A program made the translations under genes and the position numbers. Positions 2,630-5,485 of a stretch of DNA of 6,003 nt are shown here, piece by piece. Source of the stretch: a virus (Duplodnaviria > Heunggongvirae > Uroviricota > Caudoviricetes); the IMG/VR virus record IMGVR_UViG_2541047173_000020; one strand, given 5' to 3'. The notes under the pieces are model-generated. The model worked only from the letters and a program-made list of their open reading frames with translations. It ran no database searches and was not told the origin of the DNA. The stretch's first letter is position 1. The number at the start of each line of letters is the position of its first letter.

Positions 2630-2846
2630 GGCTACCTCATCTGGTGCCGAACCTTCCTCCGGATATAATCTGTGGTTCCCAATCGACAGAACCAGAGGAG
2701 GTTCGACATGTATTTTTTGAAAAGCCTTTATCAGGCTCATGTATTAAATGTTGCAGCAACAAACCGCTGGTGTAACAGCCCCGAAATGCTCCCGGATTAC
2801 AGAGCCTGGCTGCGCGCCGAAACATACCTTCGTCTCGACATATTGA

Positions 2847-3356
2847 TTAGCGAACTTCAAAAAGAGACTGCATCCATTCATAACCTTCAGGGTATCGACG
2901 CTGTTCGCATTCTGGTATCGCGCCATAGTGCTCTCTCAATAATTGAAGTGCGTCATCTCTCTTTTTCTGAACTGATTTTCTTGCTTCAACCAGCTCTGGA
3001 ATCAGCGAATATCCCGCCGGAAGTGATCCAATACCCACCTCATGTTGACGAGCAGTTACAAGATGTGCCATACAACCAGCGTGCTGGATTGACTCCCTGC
3101 TCAGAGGCTGAATGGGATCACTCTCTGCTGAAGAAATACCAAGATTTGTATAATCCTCAATAAGCCCGGCACACGCTTCTGCATCAGCCAGCTTTATTCT
3201 GGTTTCCTTGCGCTGTTCTCTGGCTGACAAACGCCAGAGCAGCGCATTAGCTTTATGTATCAACCACTCTGCCAGCTCCACATCAGATAAACCGCCACGC
3301 CAGATGTGCGGACTGTTTTCGTAAACGCTCAGTGTCAATTTTTTGTCATTACTCAT
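2847..3356 (-). CDS. Hypothetical protein, 169 aa, function unknown (extra gene between the CII-like gene and the replication initiator)
   Basis: ATG at 3354-3356 (MSNDKKLTLSVYENSPHIW...) lies 13 nt after the ydaT-like stop (3370-3372), same strand, so likely co-transcribed; the track ORF (2847..3407, 186 aa) begins further upstream inside ydaT. By hand count, first-codon-position G is about 34% here against about 26% for the overlapping plus-strand ORF, favouring this strand. SD is weak. No family recognised. Confidence 0.6.
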   Translation of the reverse strand: MSNDKKLTLSVYENSPHIWRGGLSDVELAEWLIHKANALLWRLSAREQRKETRIKLADAEACAGLIEDYTNLGISSAESDPIQPLSRESIQHAGCMAHLVTARQHEVGIGSLPAGYSLIPELVEARKSVQKKRDDALQLLREHYGAIPECEQRRYPEGYEWMQSLFEVR

Positions 3357-3369
3357 ATTTATTACCCAA

Positions 3370-3795
3370 TTAATGCACAGCCAGAGTGTTTCCTGCCGGG
3401 CCACCACGATTCATCTGATCGAACAGAACGATCGCTGATGCAACGAAATCATCAATATCTTTCACCAGCCGTTCCTTCGTCTCTACCAACTCCCGAAAAT
3501 AAGCGGAACTGTGGCTGCGCATTCGGGCCACCAGCGGAGGCGGCATCGCTTTTTCGATCGCTGGTAACAACGCCTGAATTTTTTTAACCGCATCAGGAGT
3601 GTCTTTCTCCACCCAGCGGAAAATTTTCTGAGTATTGCGAGCCATGGCTTCCGGATGGCTGTCGTCATACAGTTCCGGGAACGTCATTCCCAGCTCGAAA
3701 TACGCTTTGGTAATTTTCGCAGCCGGTACTTTTTCGCCGTCCGGATGCGCCCAGACATTCATCGCCATGCGGATGTGTTCATGCTTGATTTTCAT
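3370..3795 (-). CDS. ydaT: YdaT-like protein (proposed CII functional analog of Rac/CP-933P-type prophages), 141 aa
   Basis: Start MKIKHEHI... matches my recollection of the YdaT family N-terminus; sits directly downstream of the Cro-like gene with an ATGA start/stop overlap (ATG 3793-3795, TGA 3792-3794). GGAG lies 7 nt upstream. Family call is from memory, not a search. Confidence 0.75.
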   Translation of the reverse strand: MKIKHEHIRMAMNVWAHPDGEKVPAAKITKAYFELGMTFPELYDDSHPEAMARNTQKIFRWVEKDTPDAVKKIQALLPAIEKAMPPPLVARMRSHSSAYFRELVETKERLVKDIDDFVASAIVLFDQMNRGGPAGNTLAVH

Positions 3796-4094
3796 GAATC
3801 AACTCCATCAGATAAGCATGCACTACAATCACCTTCAGCATGAACTACATGTGTTTGCCCCAAACGAATGCCGCTCGCATACTCAGGCCAAATAAGCTCC
3901 CAATCATGGGGTCGTAGCTCCGCCCTACTTACTTGGCCTTCCGTCGCAGATTCGATCATAAGGGCGCGGGTTGGAGATATAGCTGTTCGTCCAGACGCCA
4001 TTTGCGATAAGTAAGATGGCGATACACCAAGTCTGGCCGCGAATTTCTTAGCATCACCAACCCTTAATGATTTAATAAACTCTTTTAATGTCAT
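3792..4094 (-). CDS. ydaS: Cro-like HTH regulator (YdaS family), 100 aa
   Basis: N-terminal HTH-like segment AKKFAARLGVSPSYLSQMASGRTAIS; GAGGAAGG SD directly upstream of the ATG (4092-4094); first gene of the minus-strand operon, divergent from the repressor-like gene, which is the classic cro position. Confidence 0.85.
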   Translation of the reverse strand: MTLKEFIKSLRVGDAKKFAARLGVSPSYLSQMASGRTAISPTRALMIESATEGQVSRAELRPHDWELIWPEYASGIRLGQTHVVHAEGDCSACLSDGVDS

Positions 4095-4122
4095 ACCTTC
4101 CTCGGTTTAGTGTTTTTTTGCG

Positions 4123-4152
4123 AGTTTAGTGTTTAATAAACCATTAAGTCAA
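4123..4152 (-). promoter_or_regulatory. Putative pR-like promoter for the ydaS operon (TTGACT, 18-nt spacer, TAAACT) overlapping operator motifs
   Basis: On the minus strand the -35 TTGACT is plus 4147-4152 and the -10 TAAACT is plus 4123-4128. The perfect palindrome GTTTA-A-TAAAC (4131-4141) lies in the spacer. TTTAGTG motifs occur at 4106-4112 and 4125-4131. Inferred from consensus only. Confidence 0.4.
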
Positions 4153-4156
4153 GTAT

Positions 4157-4185
4157 TTGCTTGTTTAGTGATTACTAAAGATAAT
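4157..4185 (+). promoter_or_regulatory. Putative pRM-like promoter for paaR2 (TTGCTT, 17-nt spacer, GATAAT), predicted to give a leaderless or near-leaderless mRNA
   Basis: -35 TTGCTT at 4157-4162 and -10 GATAAT at 4180-4185; the ATG of the regulator is at 4192 with no SD upstream. The spacer contains the inverted repeat TTTAGT-gatt-ACTAAA (4164-4179). Confidence 0.45.
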
Positions 4186-4191
4186 TACCAC

Positions 4192-4563
4192 ATGCAAAAA
4201 AAAGAAATTCGCCGTTTACGTCTCAAGGAGTGGTTTAAAGATAAAACTCTGCCACCCAAAGAGAAGAGCTACCTATCTCAACTAATGAGTGGGAGAGCCT
4301 CGTTTGGAGAAAAGGCTGCCAGAAGAATAGAGCAAACATACGGGATGCCGGAAGGGTATCTGGATGCGGAATACGCAGAACAACCGGGGGGTTCTCCACC
4401 ACATGCAGGGTTAACGTCTAATCAACTGGAATTATTGCAGATTTTTTCAGCCTTCCCTGAGGATGAGCAACGCCAGATAATCAGCGAGTTAAAGCAGAAA
4501 AAAGAATCAATGGAAGATCTCATAGCGAGATGGATTGCGGCGCAAAAATGCCGCCGCGCCTGA
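4192..4563 (+). CDS. paaR2: CI-type HTH transcriptional regulator, PaaR2-like (first gene of the three-component TA operon; putative prophage repressor analog), 123 aa
   Basis: MQKKEIRRLRLKEWFKDKTLPPKEKSYLSQLMSGRASFGEKAARRIEQTYGMPEGYLD resembles a phage CI-repressor-type HTH domain with no S24 peptidase domain. Divergent from the cro-like gene and followed by antitoxin and ParE toxin genes. The track start at 4129 is a GTG inside the operator region and is judged unlikely. Confidence 0.8.
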   Translation: MQKKEIRRLRLKEWFKDKTLPPKEKSYLSQLMSGRASFGEKAARRIEQTYGMPEGYLDAEYAEQPGGSPPHAGLTSNQLELLQIFSAFPEDEQRQIISELKQKKESMEDLIARWIAAQKCRRA

Positions 4564-4583
4564 GTTATAAAACCGGAGGAAAC

Positions 4584-4775
4584 ATGAATAGAGCCCTTTC
4601 ACCAATGGTTTCTGAATTTGAAACCATTGAACAAGAAAACAGTTACAACGAATGGCTGCGTGCGAAAGTAGCAACGAGCCTTGCAGATCCGCGCCCAGCA
4701 ATTCCCCATGACGAAGTTGAGCGCAGAATGGCAGAACGCTTTGCTAAGATGCGCAAGGAACGGAGCAAGCAGTAA
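4584..4775 (+). CDS. paaA2: Antitoxin of a ParE-family toxin, PaaA2-like, 63 aa
   Basis: GGAGGA SD at 4575-4580, ATG at 4584; 63-aa charged product (MNRALSPMVSEFETIEQENSYNEWLRAKV...) directly upstream of and almost abutting the ParE-like gene (stop TAA 4773-4775, next ATG 4777). Size and gene order match the PaaA2 antitoxin as I recall it. Confidence 0.85.
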   Translation: MNRALSPMVSEFETIEQENSYNEWLRAKVATSLADPRPAIPHDEVERRMAERFAKMRKERSKQ

Positions 4776-4776
4776 A

Positions 4777-5055
4777 ATGTTACCCGTGTTATGGCTTGAA
4801 AGCGCAGATACCGACCTAGATGATATAACTAGTTATATTGCTCGTTTCGACATAGATGCGGCTGAACGCTTATGGCAGCGATTAAGGGGTTGTGTGCTGC
4901 CGTTATCCGAACATCCGTATTTATACCCACCAAGCGACAGAGTACCTGGCTTGCGTGAGATTGTAGCCCACCCTAACTATATAATTCTATACCGCGTAAC
5001 AACATCAAGCGTTGAAGTAGTAAACGTGATCCACGCAAGACGCCAGTTTCCCTAA
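4777..5055 (+). CDS. parE2: ParE/RelE-superfamily toxin, ParE2-like, 92 aa
   Basis: Product MLPVLWLESADTDLDDITSYIARF...REIVAHPNYIILYRVTTSSVEVVNVIHARRQFP has the size and layout of ParE toxins; starts 1 nt after the antitoxin stop. Confidence 0.85.
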   Translation: MLPVLWLESADTDLDDITSYIARFDIDAAERLWQRLRGCVLPLSEHPYLYPPSDRVPGLREIVAHPNYIILYRVTTSSVEVVNVIHARRQFP

Positions 5056-5073
5056 CTTTCACTACCAATAGAA

Positions 5074-5120
5074 ACATAACAACCGCAACGACTTTATCAA
5101 AAGCGTTGTGTTTGTTATGT
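5074..5120 (+). terminator. Imperfect hairpin downstream of parE2, possible terminator (tIMM analog) or protein-binding inverted repeat
   Basis: Arms 5074-5090 (acataacaaccgcaacg) and 5104-5120 (cgttgtgtttgttatgt) pair at 15 of 17 positions around a 13-nt loop; a T-rich run (tttagttttt, 5128-5137) follows about 8 nt later. The stem is AT-rich and not a textbook intrinsic terminator. Confidence 0.3.
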
Positions 5121-5139
5121 CCCGCGGTTTAGTTTTTAC

Positions 5140-5167
5140 TTGACTTAAGTTTAATGTTTATTAAACT
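5140..5167 (+). promoter_or_regulatory. Putative pL-like promoter (TTGACT, 16-nt spacer, TAAACT) with operator palindrome; an inverted copy of the pR block
   Basis: -35 TTGACT at 5140-5145 and -10 TAAACT at 5162-5167; palindrome GTTTA-T-TAAAC at 5156-5166. The reverse complement of 5135-5166 closely matches 4125-4153 (shared ...GTTTAATAAAC..ATTAA..TTAAGTCAAGTA). Confidence 0.4.
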
Positions 5168-5485
5168 AAAAATACCAACCCACCCCGCCCCACAGAACGC
5201 AGGGAAATACTTCGAGTTACCAAGCAGTGGTCAGGGGGTAAGTAGCCAGCCCGAGGCGTATGAACATGACGGCAGGGTTCAACTTTAATAACTATGCAGC
5301 AGTTTTTTGTTCCGCTACCCCGGCGTTAAGGGGAAACAGAGGGTTTCTCAGTGGGCGAAGTCAAACATCAGAATGGAAGGCATCCCGGGATCGGCAAAGA
5401 AGCAGCAATGGCGCTTTATATTGACATCAGCGCCATTGCAGGACAGGTAAGAGTTATCAGAGCGGTAACTAAGCGGTATGCGCCT

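Follow-up and report, generated by a model that had tools for sequence, protein, structure and literature searches.

The immunity region of CP-933P, a cryptic prophage of E. coli O157:H7 (CP-933P/Sp12), was described in 2021 (Jurenas et al., mBio, PMC8630535). In that work, the starts of PR933P and PRM933P were mapped by 5'RACE, and the PRM933P mRNA was found to be leaderless by 5'RACE and N-terminal sequencing. The OR DNA was bound by both PaaR2 (CI-like) and YdaS (Cro-like), the latter binding and repressing; DNase I footprints on the 97-bp intergenic region, about 78 bp for PaaR2 and 27 + 32 bp for YdaS, covered both promoters. Four OR palindromes, each of 18 bp with the consensus GTTTAGTAA, were recognized, among which IR1 is a well-conserved palindrome over PRM933P, while IR2 and IR4 are each missing one half-site. 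A second repeat class of "pseudosymmetrical" operators was also described, and the exact PaaR2 and YdaS recognition sequences were left to determine (PMC8630535). At low levels, PaaR2 represses PR and PL and stimulates PRM about 4-fold, and at high levels, it shuts PRM; YdaS prefers the PRM side, and the outcome is a bistable switch (PMC8630535). Binding at OL, where the sites were named OL1-3, is known from reporter repression only, a PL933P-gfp fusion being repressed about 100-fold by PaaR2 or YdaS (PMC8630535).

This switch shares with OR/OL of lambda a divergent PR/PRM pair with several dyad operators, a second operator cluster on PL past the repressor operon, a leaderless repressor mRNA, and a weak PRM that low repressor levels activate and high levels repress. 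CI and PaaR2 both form octamers (for PaaR2 in solution, as cited in PMC8630535), and paaA2-parE2 takes the position of rexAB, i.e., cargo co-transcribed with the repressor. In contrast, the operators (GTTTAGT-N4-ACTAAAC, with four OR sites at 19-20 bp spacing) have no sequence relationship to those of lambda, OL and OR lie about 1.0 kb apart in the CP-933P-type locus, and PaaR2 is without the S24 motif (Peptidase_S24) and reportedly unresponsive to mitomycin C (PMC8630535). The CII analogue is YdaT, a POU-like tetramer, whose OM operator has been footprinted (PMC9986795). Rac (RacR-YdaS-YdaT) and Qin (DicA-DicC) of E. coli K-12 have the same gene order and partly homologous flanks: the PL leader at 5172-5334 of the DNA analyzed here and the sequence immediately following racR are 86.5% identical, and the C-terminus of PaaR2 weakly resembles that of DicA. 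However, the repressor DNA-binding domain and operators of Rac and Qin differ, and the Rac locus is without GTTTAGT dyads. Phage Evi has the same immunity region as CP-933P.

A CP-933P-type immunity region in the window

We analyzed a 6,003-nt stretch of a Caudoviricetes record (IMGVR_UViG_2541047173_000020), hereafter the window. An earlier note, made from the letters alone, had read two inverted blocks of roughly 30 bp on either side of an immunity module as OR/OL-like. The repeated blocks are real, and they are the already published OR/OL operator/promoter sites of CP-933P; the reading was thus correct and not new, the same DNA having been described in 2021. Positions 3646-5221, which include the ydaS-OR-paaR2-paaA2-parE2-OL segment, show 0 differences from the CP-933P-type prophage of O157:H7 strain TR01 (L001). 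When 19 primers from PMC8630535 were mapped onto the window, all 17 immunity-region primers matched exactly, and the two without a match were those at the ydaT 3' end or past ydaT. PR933P, PRM933P, PL933P, and the 18-bp palindromes with GTTTAGTAA half-sites are the same in both. Left of about 3646, by contrast, the window is a mosaic relative and not CP-933P itself: its ydaT differs from that of L001, with the differences clustered at 3373-3645, and its replication genes, further left, are also different (87.98% identity or no match). None of the complete E. coli genomes in the collection covered 80% of the whole window. Together, these results make it very probable that the region is an OR/OL immunity switch with 18-bp dyad operators of a CP-933P/Sp12-type prophage. 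The two blocks would then be its right and left operator/promoter regions, i.e., OR with PR and PRM, and OL with PL, in a lambdoid arrangement.

Every motif of the earlier note was found where it had been placed: GTTTAATAAAC at 4131-4141 and its reverse complement GTTTATTAAAC at 5156-5166; TTTAGTG at 4106-4112, 4125-4131, and 4164-4170, with TTTAGTT at 5128-5134; the inverted repeat TTTAGT-gatt-ACTAAA at 4164-4179; and the TTGACT -35 hexamers at 4152-4147 (- strand) and 5140-5145 (+ strand). Its proposal of lambda-like operators on two outward lytic promoters has been shown experimentally for the identical sequence, and its autoregulatory site on the maintenance promoter is IR1 over PRM933P (PMC8630535).

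The genes and sites of the module are listed in the table. Residues 1-71 of PaaR2 match PDB entries 7nkv/8c3k/8c3l ("Phage repressor protein CI", E 5e-41), and a search of the literature citing 7NKV, 8C3K, or 8C3L, the PaaR2 N-terminal domain, returned nothing relevant. A Pfam search found no S24 domain in PaaR2, the feature by which LexA-like autocleavage was judged. In the proposed arrangement, paaA2-parE2 (4584..5055) would be toxin-antitoxin cargo within the repressor operon, without an operator of its own.

Features of the immunity region in the window (scores are those of the two half-sites; published fragments placed by primer mapping, PMC8630535)
Feature	Coordinates	Strand	Remarks
ydaT, CII-like regulator	3370..3795	-	Pfam YdaT_toxin; 3' part diverges from CP-933P
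YdaT OM operator TTGATTTTCATGAATCAA	3785..3802	.	ydaS/ydaT junction, beside PRE933P; perfect TTGATT-N6-AATCAA
ydaS, Cro-like regulator	3792..4094	-	Pfam YdaS_toxin 3.3e-12 + HTH_3
Published footprint probe	4053-4241		
Published EMSA fragment	4095-4191		
Half-operator GTTTAGTgtttttttgcg (published IR4)	4105..4122	.	Scores 7/2; one good half-site
Published PR/PRM reporter fragment	4119-4192		
PR933P: TTGACT (4152-4147), N18, TAAACT (4128-4123)	4123..4152	-	Promoter scan; drives ydaS-ydaT
Dyad GTTTAGT-gttt-AATAAAC (published IR3)	4124..4141	.	Scores 7/7; over PR spacer and -10
Weak site ATTAAGTcaagtatttgc (probably published IR2)	4143..4160	.	Overlaps PR -35; coordinates inferred from spacing
PRM933P: TTGCTT (4157-4162), N17, GATAAT (4180-4185)	4157..4192	+	Direct reading
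Dyad GTTTAGT-gatt-ACTAAAG (published IR1)	4163..4180	.	Scores 7/6; fills PRM spacer, autoregulatory
paaR2, CI-like repressor, 123 aa	4192..4563	+	No peptidase domain
paaA2	4584-4775	+	Pfam PF21217 PaaA2, 1e-19
parE2	4777-5055	+	Pfam PF05016 ParE_toxin, 1.9e-16
Published PL933P-gfp fragment	5056-5173		
Hairpin, 22-nt arms, 3-nt loop	5074..5120	+	Between parE2 stop and OL; repeat search
Second OL site GTTTAGT-tttt-ACTTGAC	5127..5144	.	Scores 7/5; 22 bp upstream of main OL site
PL933P: TTGACT-N16-TAAACT	5140..5167	+	Promoter scan; directed away from parE2, towards ydfC/dicB
Main OL operator, perfect 7-4-7 dyad GTTTAAT-gttt-ATTAAAC	5149..5166	.	Scores 7/7; covers PL spacer and -10

Operators and promoters of the two blocks

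At OR, paaR2 (start 4192, +) and ydaS (start 4094, -) form a divergent pair with 97 bp between them and back-to-back promoters, both of which are overlapped by several dyad operators (4124-4141 and 4163-4180, with weaker ones at 4105 and 4143). The predicted PR933P agrees with its 5'RACE start (PMC8630535). Both published probes, for EMSA and for footprinting, include the dyad at 4124-4141, which holds the 11-bp palindrome at 4131-4141; in the proposed mechanism, this strong dyad would sit over PR with its outer half, on the other strand, serving as the -10 TAAACT. The second dyad, at 4163-4180, would fill the spacer of the weak PRM, whose transcription begins at 4192 with the first base of the paaR2 ATG, so that the mRNA is leaderless; its TTTGCTTG block is invariant among the relatives described below. 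As for the weak OR sites, which would fall at 19-20 bp intervals, the half-operator at 4105-4122 lies 19 bp from 4124 and is not conserved in relatives, and the left half of 4143-4160, read directly, has 5/7 consensus positions, and the site as a whole falls below the cut-off of a low-threshold scan. The latter site is centered at about -40 from the PRM start, from where PRM activation may take place.

Past the repressor operon, a second operator cluster (dyads at 5127 and 5149) lies on a PL-type promoter, whose hexamers (TTGACT/TAAACT) are identical to those of PR. The perfect dyad 5149-5166 would supply the PL -10. The right half of 5127-5144 coincides with the PL -35, which this site would thus supply, and the corresponding GTTTAnTTTTTACTT(G/T)AC arrangement also occurs in Photorhabdus, Xenorhabdus, Massilia, and Burkholderia-phage loci. 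A low-threshold dyad scan of the window found no third OL site above background, though three are named in PMC8630535; the OL coordinates given here are our own. OL and OR may loop over about 1 kb via the PaaR2 octamer; our literature search found no report of such looping for the PaaR2 system.

The hairpin between parE2 and OL is probably the end of the paaR2 operon transcript, although it has no strong T-run and the terminator scan did not call it. When the entire window was scanned with Rfam (E<=1), the sole match was a chance miRNA similarity at this hairpin, and the PL leader had none. The conserved PL leader (5174-5345) folded no better than shuffled sequences (z = 0.54), so that this analysis gives no support to a put/nut-like structured RNA.

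The binding unit in the window and in relatives

The recognition unit is an 18-bp dyad, GTTTAgT-N4-AcTAAAC, present at 4124-4141, 4163-4180, and 5149-5166 and in weaker form at 4105 and 5127. When modeled as 7-4-7 with half-sites GTTTA[G/A/T]T, it matched five times in the window against 0.17 expected, a count reached by 0/500 dinucleotide shuffles, and the enrichment persisted with shuffling confined to the two AT-rich non-coding segments. A repeat search recovered the same five positions (4105, 4124, 4163, 5127, and 5149) as a direct-repeat family, GTTTAGTGnTTAnT. On the proposed mechanism, two 7-bp half-sites GTTTA(G/T)T, 4 bp apart, would be bound, and the dyad would be read by the N-terminal HTH domain of PaaR2.

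The comparison set comprised 27 PaaR2-homolog loci plus Burkholderia phage vB_E177. The 27 loci contain 93 dyad sites versus 6.3 expected. Relative to the repressor ATG, 26 of them have a dyad at -67/-68 and most have one at -29; in 23, a counterpart of the main OL site is found downstream, 445-2293 bp from the repressor start. A PL-like block is conserved in relatives. In these loci and the Burkholderia phage, OR has two dyads, and a PL-like promoter has one or two. The half-site consensus recomputed from 110 half-sites was GTTTAGTAA, equal to the published one. Conversely, Rac (L029) and a LexA-type cassette (L030), both heteroimmune with window-like flanks, had 0 dyad sites.

The earlier note had taken the 11-bp palindrome GTTTA-N-TAAAC as the unit; it would then be bound by a small dimer, with TTTAGTG as separate accessory sites. 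The palindrome is enriched in the window, since GTTTANTAAAC at <=1 mismatch has three matches (perfect at 4131-4141 and 5156-5166, one mismatch at 4070-4080) against 0.19 expected and 0/200 shuffles reach this count, while TTTAGTG alone is modestly enriched (3 versus 0.65 expected; 8/200 shuffles reach 3). However, conservation runs the other way: the palindrome is found at 11/28 PR, 0/28 PRM, and 4/23 OL sites of the compared loci, whereas the outer GTTTA...TAAAC, spanning 18 bp, hardly varies. At 4163-4180, the PRM site is part of the footprint although it is without the palindrome (PMC8630535). The shared blocks of about 30 bp also proved not to be collinear around it, since its distance from the -35 is 5 nt at PR and 10 nt at PL; they align with a 2-bp indel as -35 + N5/N3 + 18-bp dyad, the outer half being the -10 TAAACT. 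On its conservation and inconsistent spacing from the -35, we rejected the palindrome as the binding unit and consider this account very unlikely; it arises only where GTTT happens to form the central 4 bp of a dyad, as in two of them. It could also be asked whether the 18-bp dyads are chiefly YdaS sites, with PaaR2 reading the pseudosymmetrical class and the two overlapping without a shared recognition sequence. The published work describes two repeat classes and leaves the protein assignment open (PMC8630535), and YdaS homologs (49-63% identity) accompany the dyads in 22/27 relatives. We nevertheless find this division unlikely: four loci (L013, L018, L020, and L023) still have the dyads although no YdaS homolog could be detected beside their repressor gene; the dyads go together with the conserved PaaR2-type N-terminal domain (58 residues, 64-78% identical across relatives), whichever C-terminal domain follows it; and the continuous footprint of about 78 bp left by PaaR2 is equal to the stretch that the four dyads occupy (4105-4180).

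Two further accounts would deny the blocks a role as repressor operators. The toxin-antitoxin genes lie between both repeat blocks and are co-transcribed with paaR2, as would suit type II autoregulation with a PaaA2-ParE2 complex on the palindromes. PaaA2, however, matched only the PF21217 PaaA2 "stability determinant" family and is without a DNA-binding domain, and the same operators persist in relatives in which the gap between repressor and OL is empty (65-106 bp) or holds unrelated cargo; on both grounds, we rejected this reading, whose probability is next to nil. The likeness of the blocks might instead be that of a duplicated sigma-70 promoter left by recombination, with PL devoid of operator function. 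The -35/-10 hexamers are indeed identical, a perfect 12-bp inverted repeat surrounds the -35 (TTAAGTCAAGTA at 4144-4155, TACTTGACTTAA at 5137-5148), and no footprint at PL has been published (PMC8630535). But the repression of the PL reporter by PaaR2 or YdaS (PMC8630535) speaks against it, as does the conservation in 23 relatives of dyad positions outside the hexamers, e.g., the inner half-site GTTTA at 5149-5153, and we regard it as highly improbable.

Operators shared with S24-type repressors

The dyads are kept with either a PaaR2-type or a Peptidase_S24 repressor tail, and with or without an intervening toxin-antitoxin pair. The S24-type CI repressors of Yersinia, Erwinia, and Mycoavidus prophages and of Burkholderia phage vB_E177 have the PaaR2-like N-terminal 58 residues at the same 64-78% identity but a Peptidase_S24 C-terminus in place of the short PaaR2 oligomerisation tail, and are therefore presumably RecA-inducible. 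Their loci have OR dyads at -67 and -29, although in Mycoavidus L021 and phage vB_E177 the -29 dyad scores too low to pass the scan threshold. Different cargo, or no cargo, separates the repressor gene from OL. A PL-like block is present in the Yersinia, Mycoavidus, and vB_E177 loci, but no clear one was seen in Erwinia L018 and L020.

We tentatively suggest, as a possibility short of an even chance, that the PaaR2-type DNA-binding domain and the GTTTAGT-N4-ACTAAAC operators form one widespread immunity specificity, in which the N-terminal domain is joined to either an SOS-cleavable S24 domain or a non-cleavable PaaR2/DicA-like tail, and the gap between repressor and OL is a cargo slot, filled by toxin-antitoxin genes here and by other genes or nothing elsewhere. 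The OR core of roughly 66 bp and the PL block of this specificity would be retained across both Enterobacterales (Escherichia, Yersinia, Photorhabdus, and Erwinia) and Burkholderiales (Massilia, Mycoavidus, and Burkholderia phage vB_E177).

Reading the sequence alone recovered a genuine phage switch and adds nothing beyond the 2021 publication on this DNA. The comparative extension is modestly valuable: it identifies the 18-bp dyad as the functional unit, presents the toxin-antitoxin pair as cargo within a conserved immunity cassette (about 3802-5171), and finds the same operator code with S24-type, presumably SOS-inducible, CI repressors in other genera and isolated phages. This common code suggests cross-immunity, as well as a route from an inducible repressor to a non-inducible cryptic-prophage repressor. 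If the specificity is truly shared, prophages of very different hosts would be cross-immune, and non-cleavable PaaR2 could dominantly repress incoming relatives of the S24 type in an SOS-proof manner.

Operators and promoters of the immunity module

The earlier note described two inverted promoter/operator blocks flanking the immunity module as an OR/OL-like switch, and all the motifs that it listed are where it placed them. The 11-bp palindrome GTTTA-N-TAAAC was found at 4131-4141 and in reverse complement at 5156-5166, a count matched by none of 200 shuffles; the TTTAGTG motifs are also present, but by themselves only weakly enriched (at least three matches in 8 of 200 shuffles). A repeat search recovered a perfect 12-bp inverted repeat (4144-4155/5137-5148) surrounding both TTGACT hexamers, as well as a direct family of five members beginning GTTTAGT, at 4105, 4124, 4163, 5127, and 5149. 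The promoter scan returned TTGACT-N18-TAAACT leftward (4152..4123) and TTGACT-N16-TAAACT rightward (5140..5167). The 5'-terminal part of ydaS contains a third, imperfect copy of this block (4063-4083; ATTTAATAAAC at 4070-4080), which pairs with 4128-4148 as a 21-nt inverted repeat (86%); only one of its half-sites fits the dyad model described below, so that it could be an auxiliary half-operator or a match by chance.

Between 3646 and 5221, the window is identical at every base to the CP-933P-type prophage carried by O157:H7 genome L001, and exactly this DNA was studied by Jurenas et al. (2021, mBio; PMC8630535), whose primers map perfectly on the window (Table). In that work, the divergent promoters PR933P (toward ydaS-ydaT) and PRM933P (toward paaR2) are consistent with 5'RACE starts, and the paaR2 mRNA is leaderless. 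Both the CI-like PaaR2 and the Cro-like YdaS bind OR, with YdaS favoring the PRM side; the PaaR2 footprint is continuous over about 78 bp, those of YdaS measure 27 and 32 bp, and both proteins cover both promoters. Of the four 18-bp palindromes described, IR1 (at PRM) and IR3 (at PR) show good conservation, and PL933P has a -35 and -10 identical to those of PR933P, together with three OL operators. Repression by either protein reaches up to 45-fold at PR and PRM and about 100-fold at PL; low PaaR2 stimulates PRM while repressing PR and PL, high PaaR2 represses PRM, and the locus is bistable (PMC8630535). Since the span of the four OR sites (4105-4180) equals the length of the published PaaR2 footprint, and footprints, 5'RACE, and reporters were all obtained on the same DNA, the switch interpretation is supported. 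The feature is genuine, and its interpretation was right apart from a small change in the unit; it has already been characterized experimentally and is not new.

Features of the window and mapped published fragments (PMC8630535)
Feature	Position	Strand	Detail
DnaC/IstB-like ATPase	1531-785	-	
O-like protein	2740-1538	-	400 aa
YdaT-family protein	3795-3370	-	
YdaS/Cro-like HTH protein	4094-3792	-	
PaaR2	4192-4563	+	123 aa; residues 1-71 match PDB 7nkv/8c3k/8c3l
PaaA2	4584-4775	+	PF21217
ParE	4777-5055	+	PF05016
Dyad	4124-4141		GTTTAGT-gttt-AATAAAC
Dyad	4163-4180		GTTTAGT-gatt-ACTAAAG
Perfect dyad	5149-5166		GTTTAAT-gttt-ATTAAAC
Partial dyad sites	4105-4122 and 5127-5144		
EMSA fragment	4095-4191		mapped primers
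Footprint probe	4053-4241		mapped primers
PR/PRM reporter	4119-4192		mapped primers
PL933P reporter	5056-5173		mapped primers
PRE reporter	3767-3886		mapped primers

An 18-bp dyad as the operator unit

Reading the five-member GTTTAGT family as dyads gives a better unit than the palindrome, namely an 18-bp dyad of 7-4-7 layout. The model has five matches in the window versus 0.17 expected, a number reached by none of 500 shuffles, and the enrichment persists within AT-rich non-coding segments alone. PR and PL alike then follow one frame, in which the -35 is followed by 3-5 nt and the dyad, whose outer half-site plus one base is the -10 TAAACT. The 11-bp palindrome is only a product of GTTT as the central four bases in two dyads; it lies unevenly from the -35 (5 nt at PR vs. 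10 nt at PL), and in relatives it occurs at only 11 of 28 PR sites, 4 of 23 OL sites, and none of 28 PRM sites.

A repressor bound at 4124-4141 or 5149-5166 would occlude the -10, since the outer half-site and this element coincide. Lambda CI at OR2 activates PRM from a position resembling that of the weak site 4143-4160, whose center precedes the PRM start by about 40 bp; this site may act likewise and could fill cooperatively from its strong neighbor at a distance of 19 bp. Negative autoregulation would follow from the dyad at 4163-4180, which occupies the spacer of PRM. PRM combines a poor -35 (TTGCTT) with a good -10 (GATAAT) 6 nt ahead of the ATG, consistent with its reported weak basal activity (PMC8630535). 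OR and OL lie 1025 bp apart, center to center, and looping through the reported PaaR2 octamer is plausible.

Cassette boundaries and surrounding genes

The window is a lambdoid early region (Table), in which the 123-aa protein was identified as PaaR2 by its match to chains labeled "Phage repressor protein CI" (E 5e-41). Homology with heteroimmune prophages ends on the left at about 3800, at the YdaT OM operator, and restarts on the right at 5172-5181, just past the PL -10; judged from these breaks, the exchangeable immunity cassette spans about 3802-5171 and has the operator blocks at its edges or close to them. The published high-affinity YdaT operator, TTGATTTTCATGAATCAA, is present in perfect copy at 3785-3802, where ydaS stops and ydaT starts, and coincides with the left edge. 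Directly after the PL -10, the untranslated stretch 5172-5336 shares about 87% identity with the DNA immediately following racR in K-12 Rac and occurs beside unrelated immunity cassettes in thousands of E. coli genomes; it has no annotation, Rfam match, or significant fold, and could represent a conserved early-left leader, nut/put-like or a recombination joint. A long hairpin after the parE2 stop and ahead of OL (5074-5120; 22-nt arms, 82% paired, 3-nt loop) has no clear T-run and drew no call from the terminator scan; it may end or stabilize the paaR2-paaA2-parE2 transcript.

At least 80% of 3700-5400 is carried by about 592 of 5426 complete E. coli genomes, and none in the collection searched reaches 80% coverage of the whole window. 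Relative to L001 the window is a mosaic, with other replication genes to the left of the stretch identical to CP-933P and a diverged 3' part of ydaT (51 differences in 3373-3645). On opposite strands, 2708-3163 (+) and 2847-3407 (-) form a pair of long overlapping ORFs: the first encodes an ECs1072-family phage protein (NCBIfam, 2.1e-30), and the second, of 186 aa, has no family match and is probably not a gene. Five perfect AAGCCCCTT repeats of 11-bp period within the O-like replication gene (2159-2189 and 2426-2445), a count reached by only 1 of 200 shuffles, adjoin a low-complexity coding stretch rich in Glu and Gln; these iteron-like repeats mark a candidate replication origin.

Conservation of the dyads and their probable reader

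When genomes were scanned, one for each species, 27 loci proved to encode PaaR2 relatives (43-76% identity), in hosts including Photorhabdus, Xenorhabdus, Yersinia, Erwinia, Raoultella, Enterobacter, Morganella, and Arsenophonus, as well as the betaproteobacterial Massilia, Mycoavidus, and Glomeribacter. Nearly all keep an OR core of roughly 66 bp, AGTTTAnnAAnnACTAAAC - 4-6 nt - GTCAAG - nATTTGCTTGTTTAGnnAnTACTAATCAnAAT, with dyads at -67/-68 and -29 relative to the start codon of the repressor gene. OL is kept in 23 of the 27, as one or two more dyads 445-2293 bp downstream in a PL-like block, GTTTAnTTTTTACTT(G/T)AC - 3-5 nt - dyad - T. Altogether, the loci hold 93 dyad sites versus 6.3 expected, and the consensus of 110 half-sites, GTTTAGTAA, is the same as published. 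Rac of K-12 and a LexA-type/Cro cassette, both with the window's flanks, contain no dyads. Escherichia phage Evi shares the window's immunity cassette and operators, and Burkholderia phage vB_E177 combines an S24-type homolog with the window's OR/OL layout.

The window's PR operator GTTTAGTGTTTAATAAAC (4124-4141) is the exact reverse complement of the relatives' commonest site, GTTTATTAAACACTAAAC (at -67 in L017, L018, L019, L020, L022, and L025), and equals their usual OL orientation, which suggests a dyad flip, or an OL-to-OR conversion, in the CP-933P lineage. In the Photorhabdus/Xenorhabdus loci L002-L008, L014, and L015, the repressor gene is not leaderless, with about 50-350 bp between the PRM-like -10 and the ATG; in L014 this stretch includes tandem repeats, each about 21 bp long.

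All relatives share the first 58 residues of PaaR2 at 64-78% identity. YdaS homologs are present at 22 of the 27 loci, and dyads are retained in four loci without a detectable one. Dyads are likewise retained whatever fills the gap between repressor gene and OL (nothing, over 65-106 bp; toxin-antitoxin genes; or unrelated ORFs). From this pattern we infer that the dyad is read primarily by the PaaR2-type HTH domain and that paaA2-parE2 is cargo. At the C terminus, the relatives carry a short PaaR2-type tail (proteins of 104-161 aa) or a Peptidase_S24 domain (207-222 aa). Since PaaR2 residues 72-119 weakly match the DicA C terminus (NF007257, E 1.4e-6, far below the family cutoff) and the same N-terminal domain is fused to Peptidase_S24 elsewhere, PaaR2 looks like a domain-swapped, non-cleavable CI. 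This observation and the comparative conservation are incremental additions to the published work.
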